Shown piece after piece: positions 6,801-30,514 of a DNA stretch of 41,877 nucleotides. The translations under genes and the position numbers were made by a program. The stretch's first letter is position 1. Every line of letters begins with the position of its first letter. This DNA is from Gammaproteobacteria bacterium (GTDB taxonomy: Bacteria; Pseudomonadota; Gammaproteobacteria; GCA-001735895), in assembly GCA_047629275.1 (NCBI GenBank), contig JBLHWR010000003.1, positions 1-41,877 of the forward strand, given 5' to 3'. The notes under the pieces were generated by a model that did no database searches, had not been told where the DNA came from, and was given only the letters and a program-made list of their open reading frames with translations.

Positions 6801-9800
6801 GCTCGCAAATGGAGCCTCAAGTAAGCTCAAAATCAAAGCATCAAAATGATTTGCTTGGCTTGTTTGCCAATCACAAAGTCGCGCCAAACCTGTTGATGAT
6901 AATGATGATTATCGCTGGCATCATCGCACTCACCAAACTCAATGTTCAATTTTTCCCCACTTTCGAACTCGATACCATTTCAATTTCGACGACTTGGACT
7001 GGTGCCAGTGCCGAAGATATCGAAACTGGCATTACCAATCCGCTCGAGCAGCGTCTAAGGAGTCTCGATGAGTTAAAAGAAATGAGTTCGACCTCGGCGT
7101 CGGGCTTGTCGGGCATTACCCTTGAATTTAATGAAGGCTCCGACCTATCGCTAGCCTTGGATAATGTCAAAAAACAAATTGATAGCTTTACTAGTTTACC
7201 TGAGGACGCTGAATTACCACGAGTGTCACAGGTTGTTTACTATGAATCGGTAGCCAGATTGCTCATTAGTGGCCCCAAAAATTTAAACGAATTACGCACT
7301 ATTGCCCGTCGATTTGAACTTGAACTATTGTCACGGGGTGTGGACAAAATCGATATCTATGGGCTACCCAAGCAAAGCATACAAATCGAAGTAGCGGCCG
7401 AACAAATTCAAAGCCTCGGCTTAGGCCTTGATGACCTCGCTCAACGAATCAAAAATGCGAGTCAGGATTTACCGGCTGGATTAATCGGTGAGAATGATGG
7501 TGCACGCGAAATTCGTAGCCAAAATCAACGCCGAAGTGCACTTGAGTTTAATGATCTGAGCATTGTTAGCACACAAGACAAACGAATCAATCTTGGTGAT
7601 ATCGCCACTATAGAAAACAAATCAATTGCGGGTTCATCGACCATTACTATTGGAGATAGCAAAGCCGTGGTGATGGTATTACGTCGCAGCGAGTCGGGTG
7701 ACTCTTTGAAATCGGCTGAAGTATTGCAAGGCTGGCTCGACGATACACTTCCCACACTCTCCCCTAGTGTTAAGGTTCAGGTATTCAACGAGCGCTGGGA
7801 ACTAATCAAGGGTCGCATTATGCTATTAGTAGAGAATGGCATAGGTGGCCTCGCACTAGTGCTACTCATTTTATATGCCTTCCTCTCAACTCGTGTTGCG
7901 TTCTGGGTTGCTGTTGGTATACCTGTCTCGTTCATGGCCACACTGGCCGCGCTCTATCTATTCGGAGGCAGTATTAATATGATCAGCTTATTCGCACTGA
8001 TCATGGCGTTGGGCATTATTGTTGATGATGCCATCGTAGTCGGTGAAGATGCCCAAGCTCATTATGATGAGGGCGAAGACCCACTCAAGGCTTCAGAAGG
8101 CGGTGCACGCCGTATGCTGACACCAGTATTGGCATCGTCATTAACGACCATTGCGGCCTTCCTTCCTCTAATGATGGTTGGTGGACGCATGGGCAATATC
8201 ATGATCGCCATTCCAATAGTCATTATATGCGTCATTATTGCCTCCCTAATCGAAAGTTTTTTAATATTACCAGGTCATCTTCGAACTGCTTTCTCGGGCC
8301 AAGATAGACAAAAAGAGTCAAAAATTCGTGTAAAGCTGACTAATGGTTTCAATCGATTCAGGGATCACTTGTTCCGTCCCTTAGTTCACGCCGCCATCGA
8401 GTTTCGTTGGACAACAATTGCTTTTGCCTTTAGTTTCTTAATCTTTGCGGTCGGGTTATTTGTTGGTGGGAAAATTGGCTGGCAATTCTTCCCCTCACCC
8501 GAATCAACCACGGTTTATGCCAATGTTCGGTTTGTTGCTGGCACATCCAATGCAGTAGTGGATAAATTTCTACTTCACACAGAAAATGAACTAAAAAACA
8601 CAATAGAATCTTACGATGAAACTGTCGTCAAAACCTATTACACGTCACATGCAAAAACATCTGGTCAAGGTCGAGCTATTACCGGTGAGCGAGTAGGCTC
8701 AGTCTATGTGGAACTTGTTAGCTCAGAAAACAGACAAACCGAAAATGTCGATTTCATTCAGAACTGGCGCAAAAGAGTCGCTTTGCCCTCCGGCATTGAA
8801 AGCTTTACCATTTCGTCTCGCCGTGTTGGGCCTGTTAGTCGCGACCTGAATATTCGACTGACTGACGCTACCCCAGAGAGGCTTAAATCAGCCTCGTTAG
8901 ATTTACAGGAAGCACTCGCCAGCATTCCCGGCGTTAGCGCCATCGATGACGATTTACCCTATGGCCGCGAGCAACTGATTTACTCACTTAGCCCCGCGGG
9001 TGAGGCACTCGGCTTATCTATTACCGACCTTGGCCGGCAATTAAGAGCGGCTTATGATGGCATTGTCTTGCAACGATTCCAGCAAGGTGCCGATGAAGTC
9101 GACGTCCGCTTACAATTGCCTAGTACTGAACAACGTAACCTCAAGAGCTTACTTCAATTGCCCATTAAACTTCCCAGTGGCAATTTTGTTCCACTCGAAA
9201 GTGTTGCCGAATGGAGCTCAAATCAGGGCTTCGAATCGCTACGTCATTTCAATGGCAAGTTGTCAGCCGCCGTTACAGCTGATGTCAACGAGTCGGTCAT
9301 TAGTATTGTCGATATCTCGACCGATTTACGGACGTCAATACTACCCATACTGGCGAGTCAGTATGGCGTCAACTTCAGCATTGAAGGCAGTTCAGCTAGC
9401 CAAAGAGATACTTTTTCTGACATGAAGTTCGGGGCCATCATGGCGTTAATGATGATGTATCTGGTTCTGGCCTGGGTGTTTTCATCCTATGGCTGGCCTC
9501 TTTTAGTGATGATTACTATCCCTCTGGGCTTGACGGGCGCTGTGCTCGGACACTGGATGATGGATATGGACATGACCATTCTGTCACTGTTTGGTTTTTT
9601 CGGGTTATCAGGCATTGTTGTCAACGACTCCATAATACTCGTCATGTTTTACCAACAAATCAGAAGCAAAGGCGTTCCAATTTATCAAGCCTTAGAAGAA
9701 GCCGCCTGTCAAAGACTGCGCGCCGTATTACTCACATCACTCACCACCATTGCCGGTCTGACACCCTTGTTATTCGAGACCTCACGTCAGGCACAGTTTC

Positions 9801-23672: not shown

Positions 23673-24704
23673 TTAAGATTCCTGCTCAAGCTGAGAGACC
23701 GACTTAAGGCCACAAAAACAACATACGATTGTTTTTAAAAGAAGCCAGTCACGATCGGGGAAATCATCCTCTTGCTGACCTTTATTGATGCGGTCTAATG
23801 TAGCACAGCTTTGCAATAAACGCTCAAGTTGATCAAACTTCAAACGCTTTAAAGCCGACTCAAAAAGACGTTGTTTCGAACTCCAAATACGCAATTCCTG
23901 CCAGACTTTAGGGCTCATTCGACCCATATTTTGTGCCTGCTGCAAGGCCATCAATTGTTCGACTGCGGATTGTAACGACCACCGTAGTTGCACTGTAAGT
24001 TGTCCCTCATCCTTCAGGCTATCTAAAATTTTAATAGCACGTTGTACTTTCCCATCTAGACAAGCATCGACCAATACAAAATTGTTGTATCGAGAGCTTT
24101 GTGCAACAGTTTGTTCGACTTCATCAAAAGACACCGAGTTTCGATCGCAAAATCGAAGTGATAGCTTATCTAACTCTTGGTCAGCTGCCAGTAGGTTACC
24201 CTCGGTGCATTCCGCTAAAAAAACGGCTGATTGGCGATCAATAATGAGAGACTTAGCCCCTGCTCTTTGAACGATCCAGTCAACCAGCTGATGATTTCCT
24301 GGCGTTTTAAGCTCACTGACCTCACCAACTTGCTGTATGCGCTTGAACCAACTCGAGTTCTTAGTTGGCCGATCTAGTGATGGTATGACAAAAATGAAAA
24401 CCATGTCCTCAGGTAGTTGATCGCATATTGCTTGAATTGCTTTACTGCCTTGCTGACCTGGCTTCCCACTATTGATCATAATCACACGGCACTTCTTCAC
24501 CGAAAAAAGTGACAAAAGATGCGACTCTTCAATTAGGCTATTCCAGTCAAAACCTGATTCCGTAGTAACGGTTTGAATGTCTTCAAAGTCGTTTTTTCGT
24601 AAAGCTAGACGTGCTTGATCAAGCCAATCACGCACAAGCAAAGGTTCATTGCTTGATAGCAAATAGAGAGTCGATGGAATTTTGCTAAGACTTGCCGGTA
24701 ACAT
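23673..24704 (-). CDS. holA: DNA polymerase III delta subunit
   Basis: YLL.S.EPLL, SLFS, EGNLLAA.QE.DKL, D...KG; synteny with leuS/lptE/nadD. Confidence 0.9.
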   Translation of the reverse strand: MLPASLSKIPSTLYLLSSNEPLLVRDWLDQARLALRKNDFEDIQTVTTESGFDWNSLIEESHLLSLFSVKKCRVIMINSGKPGQQGSKAIQAICDQLPEDMVFIFVIPSLDRPTKNSSWFKRIQQVGEVSELKTPGNHQLVDWIVQRAGAKSLIIDRQSAVFLAECTEGNLLAADQELDKLSLRFCDRNSVSFDEVEQTVAQSSRYNNFVLVDACLDGKVQRAIKILDSLKDEGQLTVQLRWSLQSAVEQLMALQQAQNMGRMSPKVWQELRIWSSKQRLFESALKRLKFDQLERLLQSCATLDRINKGQQEDDFPDRDWLLLKTIVCCFCGLKSVSQLEQES

Positions 24705-24928
24705 GGTGCTATTTTAAGCCGAATTAGGATCAAAGCGCATGCTATATAACAACACCCAACTCTTCAACCTAGAAACATCTAGAAATGCCAGTTTCCGGTG
24801 ATTAATCGTTATAGACACGATAATACCAGTACAATTTACAATTCAGCATTGTGACAGGAATATAGATAGACAAAGCCATCGCAGCACATTTGTCTAAAAG
24901 ACTGTAACACTCCCTTAAATGTAGGCAT

Positions 24929-24962
24929 AAAAAAACCCTCATGCCGGGCAGACATGAGGGTT
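24929..24962 (-). terminator. Rho-independent terminator
   Basis: AACCCUCAUGU-CUGCCCG-GCAUGAGGGUU followed by a U run (7 U in total). Confidence 0.9.
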
Positions 24963-25069
24963 AAGAGACTACTGTATTATTCCATCTAACTGCATCCTGC
25001 TAGGCATCCGGCTCATGATACATTTAAGTATCTAATCCATATTTCCTTTGCTCAAATCCATATGAACAT
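24929..25069 (-). ncRNA. CsrB/RsmX/Y/Z-like CsrA-sequestering small RNA (~140 nt)
   Basis: Six GGA motifs in 79 nt (AUGGA x3, AAGGA, CAGGAUG, CCGGAUG), several in small hairpin loops; perfect TATAAT at 25081-25076; strong terminator; no ORF in the track. Confidence 0.78.
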
Positions 25070-25124
25070 ATTAACATTATAGCGACAAAAAATCGAATGG
25101 CTATAGCCTCTAACTAACAGGAAA

Positions 25125-25164
25125 CGTAAGAAAAATCGCTTTGTAAAGCAGGATTTATCCTACG
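25125..25164. promoter_or_regulatory. Candidate tandem GacA/UvrY-type boxes (imperfect 40-bp palindrome)
   Basis: CGTAAGAAAAATCGCTTT-GT-AAAGCAGGATTTATCCTACG; half-sites resemble TGTAAG-N6-CTTACA; about -56 to -95 from the predicted sRNA start. Confidence 0.45.
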
Positions 25165-26376
25165 TTATATTTCTCTAAGCCCATCTGACGGCTCAATTTT
25201 GGCTGCTCGAAAACCTCCCAGAATAGCAGCTAGTATGGCTGTTACCATAGTTAGTCCTAACGCCCAGAAGAAATGCTCAGATAACAAAAAACATAAGGTT
25301 TGATCAAGATTCAATCTTGGCGCTAAAAAACGGTTGATCAACTGTTCGAATACAAGATAGATCAGTACTGCACATAACCATCCCAATAATCCAGTGAGAC
25401 AAGATTGCACAAGAGGAAACAACACAACCCGACTGCTCCTAAATCCGAGCAATCTGAGTATACTCAATTCTTTCTTTTTGCGATCTACATTTGCCCACAG
25501 GCTTGCCCCTAAAGAAAAGGCAAAACCAACGGCCCCAACACAGGCGATAATCCAGAAAATGACCGATAGGTTTTGATCGATCGATTGCACCGTATAAATC
25601 TCAGCCGTGTTGGCCTTGACTCGAATGCCTTGCTTTTCAAGATCAGTTACCAGATGATTAACATCATAAATTGATTTTGCATACAACCGAAAAGATGGAT
25701 ATTGACGCGCCTCAAATTTCTCTGTGTCGCCTAACCAGCCAAGTTCAGGAACTGCTCGTCCATCTTTAAATTGCTCCGTTGCAAGAAGCAGATCCAGATT
25801 AACGAAGGCAATATTGCGACTACTAACAGCTGCTTCAGCTATTTCGATTACTTTCAGTGTCAAATGAACCCGTTCACGTTTGCCTTCGAATTGCCTTGCC
25901 AAACTGGCATCAATTAATTGGCCCTTTTTTGCCTTTAGCTTTATCGATGCTTCTTTGCTTAGAATAACTTCAAAATAACCTTTAGGAACACTACTTAATT
26001 CTTTTAATAACGGGTCACCCAGCGCTGTTGCCATCATTTCTGTTGAAAGAATATGATTGGCAGTTTTGCTTTTTAGCTGAATGGTAGCAGCCAACGCACG
26101 AGTTTTAGGAATGATAAATTCCACTTCTGGACGTAATCTAAATTGTTCAACCCACTGTTCACTATAATGCCCGCTGCTGATGGGGCGGATCTCTCGATTG
26201 ACTGGATTATCTACCAACCCCGATATCATTGAACTGACGATTCCAAATTTTAATCCAAACAATATCATCATCGGTGCGAGCACGGATGCAAGTGCAAATA
26301 CAAAGCAACCCGACATACGCCATTCGTGGCTATAGTCGCGGAAACTCAATCGGAGAATGTTATTAAGTTGGCTCAT
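25165..26376 (-). CDS. TagS-like ABC transporter permease (FtsX/MacB/LolE type)
   Basis: DY..E....C...AL..VLAP...LFGLKFG...DNP.NREI, RLYA.SI.DV, ANVDRKKKELS.LRLLG, IEPSDGLREI; recalled similarity to P. aeruginosa TagS. Confidence 0.82.
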   Translation of the reverse strand: MSQLNNILRLSFRDYSHEWRMSGCFVFALASVLAPMMILFGLKFGIVSSMISGLVDNPVNREIRPISSGHYSEQWVEQFRLRPEVEFIIPKTRALAATIQLKSKTANHILSTEMMATALGDPLLKELSSVPKGYFEVILSKEASIKLKAKKGQLIDASLARQFEGKRERVHLTLKVIEIAEAAVSSRNIAFVNLDLLLATEQFKDGRAVPELGWLGDTEKFEARQYPSFRLYAKSIYDVNHLVTDLEKQGIRVKANTAEIYTVQSIDQNLSVIFWIIACVGAVGFAFSLGASLWANVDRKKKELSILRLLGFRSSRVVLFPLVQSCLTGLLGWLCAVLIYLVFEQLINRFLAPRLNLDQTLCFLLSEHFFWALGLTMVTAILAAILGGFRAAKIEPSDGLREI

Positions 26377-26406
26377 AGTGATTAATTCAAAGTCCTAAGT
26401 TGAGCT

Positions 26407-27132
26407 CTAGTCTCGAAAAAGTGATTGGTAAACGCGACCATTCTCTACTACTCCCGCTTCTTGATAAAGCGTGCGTAAATCCATTTTATAAACATGTGCC
26501 CAGTCATGACTTGAGGTGATAAGGGTTATTTTAAGCCCTTTGATTAGCTCCATTACCACCGCCATAATCTTACGCGCAGTGATCGGGTCTAAGGCAGCGG
26601 TTGGTTCGTCGGCGAGTAGTATCGATGGCCGATGTGACAATGCTCGTGCGAAAGCGACTCTTTGCCTTTCACCGGCAGATAACAACCCTGGCAACTTATC
26701 GAGTTGGCGCTGGATACCCAGCACTTTTGAAATTGAATTAATCGAATCATCATCCGCTAGTTTCAACAGCCGGCGAGGCAGCTCGATGTTTTCACGCACG
26801 GTGAGATAAGGCAATAAACCGCCCGATTGCATTACGTACCCAATATTAAGACGTCGAATTTCGGAGAGTTGATCACGCTTTTTCTTTTGCCAAAGTTGGT
26901 CGATACTGTTTGTCTCTCCATCATTAGTTACAAGACTAAATTGTTTAGCATGATCAGGATGCAGTATCAGTGCAAGCATATCAAGCAGTGTGCTCTTACC
27001 ACAGCCACTGTGCCCTATGAGGGCTATGTTTTCACCTTTAGATATCTCTAGGTTTGGAACGAGTAATCGAAAACCAGCGTTCTCGATCATGCGTTCTTTT
27101 ACGACGTTTTTCAGACTATAGATGATTGACAC
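26407..27132 (-). CDS. TagT-like ABC transporter ATPase (LolD-like)
   Basis: Walker A GHSGCGKST, Q.GGLLPYLTVRENI, LSAGERQR, LADEPTAALDP, SHDW. Confidence 0.86.
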   Translation of the reverse strand: MSIIYSLKNVVKERMIENAGFRLLVPNLEISKGENIALIGHSGCGKSTLLDMLALILHPDHAKQFSLVTNDGETNSIDQLWQKKKRDQLSEIRRLNIGYVMQSGGLLPYLTVRENIELPRRLLKLADDDSINSISKVLGIQRQLDKLPGLLSAGERQRVAFARALSHRPSILLADEPTAALDPITARKIMAVVMELIKGLKITLITSSHDWAHVYKMDLRTLYQEAGVVENGRVYQSLFRD

Positions 27133-27197
27133 TTTGAATTAAAACTCGTTAGGTATTGTTTCTTAGTATGAAAGTTATTATGAAAGGCAATGAGAAA

Positions 27198-27232
27198 TAA
27201 AGAACATGGTGCTCATTACGACATGTTCTTTA
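27198..27232 (-). terminator. Intra-operon hairpin after the vWA gene
   Basis: TAAAGAACATG-N13-CATGTTCTTTA perfect 11-bp arms followed by TTTCT on the minus strand. Confidence 0.5.
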
Positions 27233-27254
27233 AGACATTTTTTTTGACAAAATA

Positions 27255-29216
27255 TCAAGGTAAAAGATCGAGCGACACTGGAAAGACAGAGTTTCCATTA
27301 ACAGGCCCTCCACCAGGTGTCACCCAAAGATCAGTATGGTCGTGCAATGCCTGATAGTAAGTGATTTTACTTTCCAATCGGTGCATAAATTCTATTTGCA
27401 CTTTGGCTGACCATGCTTCCCAACTTTCCAGCGTAAGGTTCATCACTTCACCGGTGTAAGGTAAGTCTTCAATATATTCACGCATATAACCCATATCAGC
27501 CAAATTCGCACCTGAACCCGATGTACTGCTAGCAACAGCTGATGGATCGAGGCTAACTGTCGCCGCTAAACTCTTTAAGTCTTCTATAAAGCTTTTAGGG
27601 CTAAGGACCCCCTCTTCGGCTAACTCTAAAACCTGCTGCATGACACTTTTTAAATCACTCAATTGATCTCTAGTAAGTAGCACACGAACATCGACTGTAG
27701 AACGCTCAGGATTTTCAAAATCTTTATCAATCATCCACGCATTAAATACCGTAGGCAATGGTTTACCTGATTCTTTTTGTAGATAACGCATGCGCAAGGC
27801 ATTGCCTAACTTTGCAACACGGTTTTGCAATTGGGATAGCTGAGAGGGTGTTTCATCAGCGTTAGCGTTAGCTTCAGTTTCATCATGCAACGGAAATGGT
27901 GGTACACCATTGGTCGTGGCAAGCACTTGTTGTGTTAGTTGATTGGCTAGCAACTCTAATACGGTGCCAAATTCATCCACTTCTGCGAGCCTAACGCCAT
28001 AATAAAAGTCACCGATACCAGGATAATAAGAAAGCTCTTTATAAAGTCTTTCTGTCTTTTCATGGTTTGCGACCGAAGACTGAGCACGCAAATGTAAAAC
28101 CCAAATCGAAACACCCTTGTCATAAGCCAACTGCCTTAAAGCTTGCGCGCTAAGACGGGTAGAGCCCAAAGAATCATGACTTTCTCGTGGCCCTGCATCA
28201 GTAATTAATATCACGTAACGGGCATCAAATTCATTCCAGTCAGTGCTTTCGATGGCTGACTTTATTCCTGCATAGGCGTCTTCTCTAAAGTCTCGGCTAG
28301 ACACCTCAGATGGACTAAGTTCATTGACATGGTTAAAGAATTGTTTAACGTCAGTACCTTGTTTAAGACTGACATAAGGCCGAACCAAATATTTTAATTC
28401 CGGTACCTGATCGATATTGTCTCGATAGGCCGTTAAACCAAAGCTCACTTGGTTGTTTAAGCCTTGCTTCTCTATTGCTGAATAAACTTTGGCAACCGCC
28501 TCACGAGTACGATCAATGTAAGGTCCCATCGACGCCGTGGAGTCAATCACAAAATGAATGCCGCTTCTATAACTTCGAGATTTCTGGCTAACTGCGATAG
28601 AATTCGCACGACTAGCCTCATCTTGCAGCGGTACACTGGCTATCTCGAGTAATCTGGCCTGCTCGTTTCCTAGATAAACATCTTCATGCTGCTTGATTGG
28701 CACAAGATAAAAATCTTGCAGGATGTCTATGTGCGCTTCTGGTTGAATGGCAATTACGGGGAAATCATCACCCACATCACCTTTAACTGCTGAATTATAG
28801 AGCGCCTGATAGGCCTCTTTATCGTAATCATTAACCAGCCGTTGTAAATTCTCTTTTTTATCAAACAGCATCACCCGTTGAGTATCCTGTGGGTCTTTAA
28901 ATGATACAGTCAACGCCTGATTCCAGATTATGGTTTTTGTCTGCTTAACCCAACCAGCCGTATCTCCAAAATTGCCATGACCTACCTTGATCCAGCCCTG
29001 TTTTTTTTGATAAACATAAAGAACACTAAATGGCACAATTTCGCTGGATGGCGCTGATTGCTCTGGTGACTCGTAAAGTCGAGCATCAGGCGTGCTAAGC
29101 ACTCGTTGATAGAGAGTTTTTTTGCCCTCCATTAGTAAAGGCAGTTCATTAGCCAGTGCAATATTGGTATGAAGAGAAACTAGTCCGACGAACAAAATTT
29201 TTATTAAATTTCTCAT
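27255..29216 (-). CDS. Secreted vWA-domain protein homologous to the periplasmic region of PpkA, without kinase domain
   Basis: Signal peptide ending IALA; PLLMEGKKTLYQRVLS, PFSVLYVYQ, MIDAS-like FVIDSTASMGPYI, AYRD, LITDAG, VLLTRDQLSDL, EY.EDLPY, V.LD.LP. Confidence 0.85.
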   Translation of the reverse strand: MRNLIKILFVGLVSLHTNIALANELPLLMEGKKTLYQRVLSTPDARLYESPEQSAPSSEIVPFSVLYVYQKKQGWIKVGHGNFGDTAGWVKQTKTIIWNQALTVSFKDPQDTQRVMLFDKKENLQRLVNDYDKEAYQALYNSAVKGDVGDDFPVIAIQPEAHIDILQDFYLVPIKQHEDVYLGNEQARLLEIASVPLQDEASRANSIAVSQKSRSYRSGIHFVIDSTASMGPYIDRTREAVAKVYSAIEKQGLNNQVSFGLTAYRDNIDQVPELKYLVRPYVSLKQGTDVKQFFNHVNELSPSEVSSRDFREDAYAGIKSAIESTDWNEFDARYVILITDAGPRESHDSLGSTRLSAQALRQLAYDKGVSIWVLHLRAQSSVANHEKTERLYKELSYYPGIGDFYYGVRLAEVDEFGTVLELLANQLTQQVLATTNGVPPFPLHDETEANANADETPSQLSQLQNRVAKLGNALRMRYLQKESGKPLPTVFNAWMIDKDFENPERSTVDVRVLLTRDQLSDLKSVMQQVLELAEEGVLSPKSFIEDLKSLAATVSLDPSAVASSTSGSGANLADMGYMREYIEDLPYTGEVMNLTLESWEAWSAKVQIEFMHRLESKITYYQALHDHTDLWVTPGGGPVNGNSVFPVSLDLLP

Positions 29217-29242
29217 TAAATCACCTTAATATCTGATGGCTA

Positions 29243-29875
29243 TTATTTTAAATTTAAGAGTAATTGGCGAGCAAAAGGATTGCCTGCTTTAGACTCGTCC
29301 AAAGCCCACTGCCGCAAGTTTTGTATGCTATCGATGGCAGGTTGGTAACCGGTCAACGCTGCTTTTTGATACCATTTATAGGATTGAACAGGGTCTGCCT
29401 GATCAAGTAAGCTAATGTCTGCTCGAAACTGAGTCGGATCAGACATGATTGCCATTTGCATAATTGAGTCGAGGTGACCTTCTCTGGCGCTAAAAAAATA
29501 AAGTAGGTGCGCGTCAGCCAAACTGCCTTCTTCCTGGTAAATTTTCGCTTGATTAAAAATCTCAGACAAGTCATATGACTTGCCGACCTTTCGAATTTTT
29601 TGTATTATTTTCCTCGCTGCCATGCCCGGTGGAGTGGGTAGATTACGATCTATGGCACCATTGTTTTCTAATGAAGTTGACGATGAAAACAACGATTGTT
29701 CGGATCCAACTACTTTTTGATCTTCAGCCGGCTCTAAACTACTCATGCCAGAGTCAGAGTGCTCAGAACCCAATCCATTAGGACCATTTCTGTCAGAACC
29801 AAAAAAGATAAACAATATTAATCCGGCAACGGCCAGTCCGGTCCAGAATAATGGGTTGCGCTGCGGTGCTGTCAA
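29243..29875 (-). CDS. Membrane-anchored SEL1-like repeat protein
   Basis: N-terminal TM FWTGLAVAGLILFIFFG, Ser-rich linker, A..GH..S...MA...DP and A...SYKWYQKAA..G...A. Confidence 0.75.
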   Translation of the reverse strand: MTAPQRNPLFWTGLAVAGLILFIFFGSDRNGPNGLGSEHSDSGMSSLEPAEDQKVVGSEQSLFSSSTSLENNGAIDRNLPTPPGMAARKIIQKIRKVGKSYDLSEIFNQAKIYQEEGSLADAHLLYFFSAREGHLDSIMQMAIMSDPTQFRADISLLDQADPVQSYKWYQKAALTGYQPAIDSIQNLRQWALDESKAGNPFARQLLLNLK

Positions 29876-30025
29876 GATGGGTTCGCCCGAAGTAGATATT
29901 TGTATTTTAAAGTTTATTACTCAACTAGTTGAGCAATTGAGCCGTCGGCCAATCTAAGTTACTAACCTCAGTATAAACCTTTGTGATGACAGGGTAAATT
30001 TTGAATACGCTGTTTTTACGTTATT

Positions 30026-30514
30026 TCACAATCTTTTCAGCTGAAAAATTAACTGACTAAACAATGTTTGATCTAATGTCCTTTCAGCACTCGTCTTCTC
30101 TAATTCAGTTCCCAGCAAATTATTACTGTCTTGCTCTATATTAATTTGACGCTCTATTATTTTTATCTGCAATAGTGAGACATCTTCTGACCTTTTTACG
30201 CTATAACTGAGCCGTTTAGAAATCTGTACAATTGTTGTACCCGTTCCTGCACTGTCGGCAAGGTTACGGTCAGACAAACTAGTCATTTTAACCTTGAGTT
30301 GCACTGGGTCATTGGCGTCACTTAGCTGTAACTTTGCACCCGCTTTGACAAGCATCTGACTTAGTAGTCTGATTTGATCCGCATTAAGGCCGTCATCAAC
30401 CAATTGTAATTGAGTCATCGTCTCAGGTAAGCTAGATACTCCGCGTAGCTGAAAACCACAGGCAGAAACGAAGCCAACTAAGATCAGTATTGCAATAAAC
30501 TGAAGTTTTTTCAT
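30026..30514 (-). CDS. lptE: LPS assembly lipoprotein LptE
   Basis: Lipobox VSACGFQLRG; directly after leuS. Confidence 0.9.
   Translation of the reverse strand: MKKLQFIAILILVGFVSACGFQLRGVSSLPETMTQLQLVDDGLNADQIRLLSQMLVKAGAKLQLSDANDPVQLKVKMTSLSDRNLADSAGTGTTIVQISKRLSYSVKRSEDVSLLQIKIIERQINIEQDSNNLLGTELEKTSAERTLDQTLFSQLIFQLKRL

Follow-up and report, generated by a model that had tools for sequence, protein, structure and literature searches.

The window analysed here is a stretch of 41,877 nucleotides (nt), positions 1 to 41,877 of the forward strand of contig JBLHWR010000003.1 (GenBank assembly GCA_047629275.1), from a metagenome-assembled genome (MAG) of a gammaproteobacterium in the GTDB order GCA-001735895. 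On the minus strand of the window a gap of 460 nt separates two open reading frames (ORFs), located at 25165-26376 and 23673-24704, and within this gap, on the same strand, lies the locus of a predicted small RNA (sRNA) with six GGA triplets. A previous interpretation made from the letters of the DNA, referred to below as the sequence-only reading, had proposed that this RNA is an unannotated, lineage-specific sponge for the regulatory protein CsrA/RsmA. The features of the locus and its two neighbouring genes are as follows.

25148..25163, minus strand: palindrome GTAGGATAAATCCTGC, candidate GacA/UvrY box, its start 94 nt upstream of where the RNA is predicted to begin
25126..25130, minus strand: extra half-site CTTAC, 18 nt downstream of the palindrome, a conserved block in the flank alignment of 19 sequences
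25076..25103, minus strand: predicted sigma-70-type promoter, with TAGCCA at 25103-25098, a 16-nt spacer and TATAAT at 25081-25076 (10 of 12 consensus matches)
24929..25069, minus strand: predicted sRNA of about 141 nt, its 5' end placed from the -10 box and its 3' end from the U-run
25050..25067, minus strand: hairpin H1, 5 base pairs (bp), with GGA 1 (25059-25057) in an 8-nt loop
25044..25046, minus strand: GGA 2 (AAGGA), in the linker between H1 and H2
25018..25042, minus strand: hairpin H2 with a variable loop, GGA 3 (25038-25036) at the 5' edge of the loop
25002..25014, minus strand: hairpin H3 around GGA 4 (25009-25007), weak in this copy, with one A-C mismatch
24992..25000, minus strand: hairpin H4, GCA-GGA-UGC, carrying GGA 5 (24997-24995)
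24981..24983, minus strand: GGA 6, in the loop of a GUUA/UAAU hairpin (H5 region)
24929..24962, minus strand: intrinsic terminator, a 12-bp stem with six G-C pairs and a 5-nt loop (24962-24934), followed by a T7 run to 24929
25165..26376, minus strand: upstream neighbour, an FtsX-type ABC permease, last gene of a cassette
23673..24704, minus strand: downstream neighbour, holA (DNA polymerase III delta; TIGR01128, 223 bits), 224 nt past the terminator

The elements named in the sequence-only reading could all be found again. TATAAT occupies 25081-25076 of the minus strand, the six GGA triplets start exactly at 25059, 25046, 25038, 25009, 24997 and 24983, and the hairpins GUUCA-UAUGGAUU-UGAGC, GC(A)-GGA-(U)GC and GUUA-GAUGGAA-UAAU can all be drawn. 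The terminator with its U-run is likewise present, but its stem, given as 11 bp, counts 12 pairs in our scan. A promoter scan of 24300-25600 delivered TAGCCA/TATAAT as the sole promoter-like site on the minus strand. The body of the sRNA contains no ORF of at least 20 amino acids (aa), and a small-protein reading of the locus was rejected on this ground. GGA 1 and GGA 3 sit in a 12-nt direct repeat with 11 of 12 positions identical (25031-25042 and 25052-25063), which suggests that binding sites in this RNA arise by local duplication.

A covariance model of the six-helix structure (H1-H5 and the terminator), termed R1, was built from 19 homologues; all R1 E-values given here rest on a shortened calibration. 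In the assembly itself R1 delivers one credible match, 24929-25069 on the minus strand, with 121.8 bits (E=1.2e-30). A further match on contig C137 (683-820, E=1.2) falls within a pilin-like coding region and was dismissed as noise; the locus is single-copy in the assembly, and a reading as a repeat element was rejected. BLAST with the region found homologues in 17 of the 59 other genomes of the genus and R1 in 42 of them. Across the order R1 is present in 55 of 77 other genomes, distributed over all four genera (42/59, 2/2, 9/14 and 2/2), and 150 further genomes drawn from the class contributed two weak matches only, of 28.6 and 21.2 bits. In the aligned loci conserved GGAs stand beside changing stems, followed in the upstream direction by a conserved -10 box, the palindrome and the end of the permease gene. 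Judged from this conservation, the sRNA locus is a real and conserved gene.

A degenerate motif scan of a named genome collection yielded 29 loci, 19 of which are confirmed by R1 with at least 104 bits each; the other ten come from unrelated taxa, are unconfirmed by R1 and were set aside as chance matches. Most of the confirmed records carry the title of a 'Gammaproteobacteria bacterium' or 'Proteobacteria bacterium' MAG, and one (L090) is titled 'Olavius algarvensis Gamma 3 endosymbiont', an endosymbiont of a gutless worm. Three loci with a high-scoring sRNA (L073, L078 and L092; 120-141 bits) stand in MAGs titled Polaribacter, Urechidicola and Acidimicrobiia; these titles likely reflect mis-binned contigs or wrong labels. 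DNA near-identical to 24300-25700 of the window (at least half of the sampled words) occurs in 17 sequencing runs. Sixteen of these bear the label 'ice metagenome', each from a different coded study, and the source sample of the window may be among the runs. A second copy of the sRNA stands in tandem with the first in one sister genus (L108, L110, L111 and L112). The copies in L108 lie at 1315-1463 and 1587-1750, and the spacing in the tandem loci is about 120 nt. Three of these four loci have an upstream copy that is poorer in GGA (three triplets) and has no palindrome.

The structure was evaluated on two alignments, A1 with 19 sequences and A2 with 47 model matches; the latter is aligned to the R1 model and is biased towards the proposed structure. 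Kinship among the relatives lets shuffle tests overstate significance, and the slid-partner controls and counts of double changes are the more reliable measures. In A1, 89.9% of the cells pair; column shuffles give 81.4%, none of the 500 attaining the figure of the alignment, and the slid-partner control gives 32-45%. Compensatory changes on both sides are seen in 20 of 33 pairs. The corresponding values for A2 are 91.2% of cells pairing, 75.8% in shuffles and both-side changes in 30 of 33 pairs. RNAalifold, applied independently to the 19 sequences, gave the terminator and hairpins H1, H3 and H4 again; of the 19 pairs in this fold, 11 are compensatory. The compensatory pairs are spread over the helices: H1 has four of five in A1 and five of five in A2, H2 three and six of six, and the terminator stem 10 and 11 of 12. 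The A-U pair closing H4 is replaced by U-A in 6 of 19 sequences of A1 and in 7 of 47 of A2, and H3 is strong in the relatives, where it reads AGGC-nGGAn-GCCU.

Four of the six GGA triplets keep their alignment columns within this covarying frame. Among the 47 homologues, GGA 1 (25059) and GGA 2 (25046) are each found in the same columns in 44, and within six columns in 45 and 46, respectively; GGA 4 (25009) is found in 40 by either measure, and GGA 5 (24997) in 41 and 45. GGA 3 (25038) holds its columns in 3 homologues (11 within six columns) and GGA 6 (24983) in 11 (30 within six columns). The loop of H2 is variable, and the relatives usually have a GGA at a position of this loop other than that of GGA 3. 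GGAs 1, 2, 4 and 5 fall in unpaired columns of the family structure. The sequence-only reading had made conservation of the triplets in orthologous intergenic regions a check on its proposal, and with four of six fixed to their columns in 40-44 of 47 homologues the outcome favours it. Loop triplets that stay fixed while the stems around them co-vary are the signature of selection on the triplet itself.

The density of GGA and the fold of the single sequence contribute less. The window copy has six GGAs within 79 nt, and stretches of 90 nt with at least six make up 1.7e-4 of all 90-nt stretches in the 2.1-Mb assembly, where they form 26 clusters. Of these, 23 lie inside open frames and three are free of any; one of the three is a (TTAAGGA)x8 microsatellite on contig C107. 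Clusters on contigs C144 and C96 were also looked at. The C107 repeat, at approximately 2265-2320, is a tandem array with no open frame and comprises eight potential CsrA-type motifs. GGA density is suggestive and by itself not unique to the locus; conservation lifts the case beyond chance. The RNA folds with -38.4 kcal/mol (z = -2.13), and 4 of 200 shuffled sequences fold as well or better; the single-sequence fold is just modestly better than that of shuffles. In the ensemble of the window RNA the probability of being unpaired ranges from 0.28 to 0.98 over the six GGAs, with 0.98 for GGA 1 and 0.82 for GGA 6.

Upstream of the RNA, GTAGG-N6-CCTAC with at most two mismatches starts between -93 and -96 from model position 1 in 40 of the 47 homologues; two of the seven misses are due to contig ends. 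A TAnnnT hexamer is found at -11 to -13 in 46 of 47. The published UvrY/GacA box is TGTAAGN6CTTACA (PMC3171408, in excerpt), from which the box of the family differs at one symmetric position. Several relatives have the canonical CTTAC half and one a fully canonical GTAAG-N6-CTTAC. Because of this single symmetric difference and the canonical halves within the family, the palindrome is read as a candidate GacA/UvrY box, a variant of the published consensus. At the extra half-site the relatives have GACTACA or CCTAC, and we infer that this half-site has a function.

A scan of the assembly with the palindrome led to a second sRNA, which is intergenic and about 129 nt long (contig C16, 7606-7734, plus strand). 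The region around it (7504-7739, corresponding to 2005-2240 of locus L029) contains the box GTAAGGCTTTTCCTAC (GTAAG-N6-CCTAC), a -10 box of the sequence TATAGT and a terminator, as well as four conserved CAAGGA motifs, one of which lies in the invariant hairpin GAUGCGC-AAGGAA-GCGCAUC. Homologues of this RNA align with conserved GGAs and an identical type of upstream box. Its own model, R2, matches in 37 of 77 other genomes of the order, mainly in its own genus (35/59). It is undetected by R1, has no match in Rfam and is unrelated in sequence to the window RNA, with which it shares the promoter architecture in a different gene context. Two GGA-rich RNAs without relation to each other, each preceded by this type of box, correspond to the RsmY/RsmZ pattern, and by analogy with that pair the second sRNA probably acts redundantly with the window RNA. 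The palindrome also occurs in perfect form on contig C49 (5581-5596, locus L030) as GTAGGATGCATCCTAC, together with a nearby CTAC half-site. Downstream of it neither a GGA-rich RNA nor a clear ORF was found, and the same regulator may have a further target here.

The position next to uvrC is the classical one of gacA/uvrY. In the present assembly a 215-aa response regulator, encoded directly upstream of uvrC, has as its best NCBIfam family NF007018 (UvrY/SirA/GacA) with 258.6 bits (curated cut-off 280), followed by the next family at 150.9; the uvrY/gacA gene that the sequence-only reading had asked for in this genome is accordingly present. An open frame of 922 aa covers positions 2-918 of 920 of the BarA model with 540.7 bits, which is below the equivalog cut-off of 890 bits, and represents a full-length BarA-like kinase. 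The csrA gene, detected with PF02599, is found in 21 of 24 relatives within the genus and in 67 of 77 other genomes of the order, including all 38 with at least 90% completeness and at most 5% contamination.

The intergenic RNA was compared with the families of Rfam 15. At gathering thresholds the whole window gave no match. With E≤10 over 24600-25300 three noise matches to unrelated families were obtained, and with E≤1 over the loci of 12 relatives two unrelated ones; these noise matches (an L10 leader, matched via the terminator, small nucleolar RNAs and similar) were discarded as unrelated. That the RNA would be unannotated, lineage-specific and unseen by Rfam is borne out by the absence of any CsrB, CsrC, RsmX, RsmY or RsmZ match and by its distribution, which is almost confined to the order. 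In the open-access literature searched nothing was found on Csr sRNAs of this lineage.

Five sequence criteria that define CsrA-regulating sRNAs are given by Kulkarni et al. 2006 (PMC1488887, in excerpt). The window RNA is intergenic, in a gap of 460 nt. It ends in a Rho-independent terminator with a 12-bp stem, U7 and covarying pairs. At the level of the family its GGAs lie in loops and free regions, with GGAs 1, 4 and 5 in the loops of H1, H3 and H4 and GGA 2 in a linker. Upstream it has a UvrY/GacA-type site, GTAGG-N6-CCTAC, as judged by comparison with the consensus TGTAAGN6CTTACA. Four of the five sequence features are thus clearly recognizable in the DNA; the fifth, the binding motif, is found only in a looser form, GGA or A(N)GGA.

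Taken together, these data make it very likely that 25069-24929 on the minus strand is an independently transcribed decoy sRNA of about 141 nt for CsrA/RsmA, a real and conserved gene of the Csr/Rsm type. From the sequence we infer its transcription, its exact 5' end, its dependence on GacA and its binding of CsrA. In the proposed mechanism the BarA/GacS-like kinase would phosphorylate the GacA/UvrY orthologue, which would bind the palindrome centred about 87 nt upstream and activate the TATAAT promoter. The transcript would then expose GGA in short hairpin loops and linkers, four of the six being strongly conserved, and CsrA dimers binding these sites would be withdrawn from their messenger RNA (mRNA) targets. 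The strong terminator would end the RNA and halt read-through from the ABC operon towards holA.

A number of observations weigh against a decoy for CsrA. In the window copy the strict AGGA/ARGGA motif is found at two of the six GGAs (2 and 5); the copy has three AUGGA and one CCGGA, five of six triplets satisfying A(N)GGA or AGGA, and AAGGA or CAGGA is commoner at the corresponding sites of the relatives. In the window ensemble pairing predominates at GGAs 2 and 3, whose probabilities of being unpaired are 0.28 and 0.38. The consensus structure has -14.8 kcal/mol in the window RNA versus -38.4 kcal/mol for the minimum free energy fold, a consequence of the degenerate H3 and H5 of this copy. 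The box of the window is the most degenerate of the family, with one core mismatch (CCTGC) and with C and T as flanks, where most relatives have T and A, and it is not unique, the assembly containing 12 palindrome sites at one mismatch or less. No Csr/Rsm model of Rfam matches the RNA, 22 of 77 genomes of the order (incomplete MAGs, strict filters) are without an R1 match, and no RNA run is listed as carrying 24300-25700 of the window. The csrA gene, whose presence had been another check named by the sequence-only reading, was not found with PF02599; in a MAG of 68.9% completeness this is weak evidence. In relative L002 csrA adjoins an aspartokinase-like (lysC-like) gene and a stretch resembling a transfer RNA, and this neighbourhood has no tblastn match in the present assembly. 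With the csrA neighbourhood wholly unmatched and a completeness of 68.9%, the gap therefore looks like missing assembly, and the csrA locus is most likely unassembled rather than absent.

The form of the motifs (two of six strict A(R)GGA), the pairing of GGAs 2 and 3, the csrA gene not found in this assembly and the lack of a Csr/Rsm match in Rfam would also suit a conserved sRNA of another mode, one that base-pairs with mRNA or serves another protein and in which the GGAs are structural or incidental. Such an RNA is unlikely: four GGAs are kept unpaired in 40-44 of 47 homologues amid covarying stems, the GacA/UvrY-type box stands at a fixed upstream distance, a second, unrelated RNA combines the same box with four CAAGGA loops, and CsrA occurs in all 38 high-quality genomes of the order.

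The genes on either side give rise to two further explanations. Being on the same strand and about 95 nt past the stop codon of the permease, the RNA could be the 3' untranslated region and terminator of the ABC-permease operon, possibly processed to a 3'-derived RNA, with TATAAT being fortuitous. The permease is indeed linked to the RNA in 27 of 29 and 11 of 12 loci, and L051, the one full-length locus that lacks holA, keeps the RNA beside the permease. We nevertheless consider this explanation very improbable, as the -10 hexamer (46/47) and the palindrome (40/47) lie between the stop codon and the RNA, conservation of the sequence starts at the predicted 5' end, and the promoter architecture recurs at the sRNA on C16, where the neighbouring genes are different. 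Seen from the other side, the element lies upstream of holA on the same strand, holA is the next gene in 25 of 29 and 10 of 12 loci, and the scan detected nothing promoter-like from the terminator to holA, as would be expected of a cis-acting leader or attenuator of holA and the downstream proA-nadD-rsfS-rlmH. But the 12-bp stem and U7 of the terminator are followed by 224 nt more before holA, RNAalifold gave no conserved alternative anti-terminator pairing, the RNA persists in L051 without an adjacent holA, and a GacA-type box is typical of sRNA genes. We give a leader hardly any credence.

Whether the proposed decoy RNA belongs functionally to its neighbours is a separate matter. The cassette (25165-29875, minus strand) encodes a 210-aa protein, a 653-aa protein with a VWA domain, an ABC ATPase and the FtsX permease, and it sits between lptE-like and leuS-like ORFs on one side and holA on the other. 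The sequence-only reading had called it Tag-like; Pfam does not bear this out, giving FtsX, ABC_tran, VWA and one protein without family, the 210-aa product, for which neither Pfam nor NCBIfam has a match. The two TssC genes of the type VI secretion system in the assembly are on contigs C72 and C103 and not on the window contig. The adjacency of the sRNA to the cassette, which according to the sequence-only reading may be functional, holds order-wide in all four genera: the permease is directly upstream in 27 of 29 loci of the genus and in 11 of 12 of the other three genera, and holA downstream in 25 and 10, respectively. Five of the six neighbours missing in loci of the genus fall in short loci cut by contig ends; in the full-length locus L051 holA is absent and the sRNA still adjoins the permease. 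GGA-rich leaders of cassette genes, which would hint at CsrA feedback, were not seen at 29850-30040 or 27100-27270.

It is doubtful, though conceivable, that the sRNA and the VWA/ABC-export cassette form one conserved functional module, in which expression of the transporter is wired to the titration of CsrA. In this case read-through of the cassette operon would provide a GacA-independent route to this GGA-rich RNA, and the terminator, common to both, would at the same time shield holA, a replication gene. In a lesser variant of the module idea, the GTAGG/CCTAC box with its extra half-site may reflect an altered or dual-regulator DNA specificity in the order. Independently of any module, the terminator should block read-through, since it separates the ABC operon from holA on the strand of both, and from this geometry it is plausible that it uncouples holA from the upstream genes. 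The scan found no promoter-like site in the interval up to holA.

The Gac/BarA-UvrY pathway, through which Gammaproteobacteria switch lifestyle, secretion systems, motility and carbon storage, has the Csr/Rsm decoy RNAs as its output. These RNAs diverge fast, and each lineage needs its own model. R1 and R2 represent two covariation-supported RNA families for an uncultured order represented almost entirely by MAGs, and R1 is a candidate for a new Rfam family. The Gac-Csr circuit of this order can now be annotated and traced in metatranscriptomes, while the understanding of the Csr/Rsm system itself is unchanged by the window RNA.

Among the closest known systems are RsmY and RsmZ of Pseudomonas, the Rfam families RsmY and PrrB_RsmZ, with sizes of roughly 110-140 nt. 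Shared features are the small size, the GGAs in short hairpin loops and linkers, the Rho-independent terminator, the palindromic upstream activating sequence for GacA and the occurrence of at least two redundant, divergent sRNAs per genome, here the window RNA and the one on C16. In contrast to the Pseudomonas RNAs, the window RNA has no detectable similarity to them in sequence or by covariance model, the box in most members of its family is GTAGG-N6-CCTAC instead of GTAAG-N6-CTTAC and is accompanied by an extra half-site, and its position between the ABC permease and holA is fixed across the order. RsmY and RsmZ of Legionella pneumophila, said to have been described by Sahr and colleagues in 2009, are reportedly a pair of small GGA-rich RNAs under LetA, a regulator of the GacA family. 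The likeness is that of a GGA-rich pair in a gammaproteobacterium that is neither enteric nor a pseudomonad; going by description only, the sequence family is a different one.

With CsrB/CsrC of Enterobacteriaceae and CsrB1/CsrB2 of Vibrio and Shewanella the window RNA shares the functional class with its five criteria (PMC1488887, in excerpt) and the UvrY/GacA box upstream (PMC3171408, in excerpt). The tandem duplicated copies in one sister genus recall those reported for csrB1/csrB2 of Shewanella. The window RNA differs from the CsrB type in size, with 141 nt and six GGAs as opposed to about 420 nt and 21 motifs in V. fischeri (PMC1488887, in excerpt), and it has no covariance-model match to CsrB or CsrC. 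On these comparisons, the window RNA is a new sequence family of a well-known kind of RNA, which lies outside every family of Rfam 15 and resembles RsmY and RsmZ.

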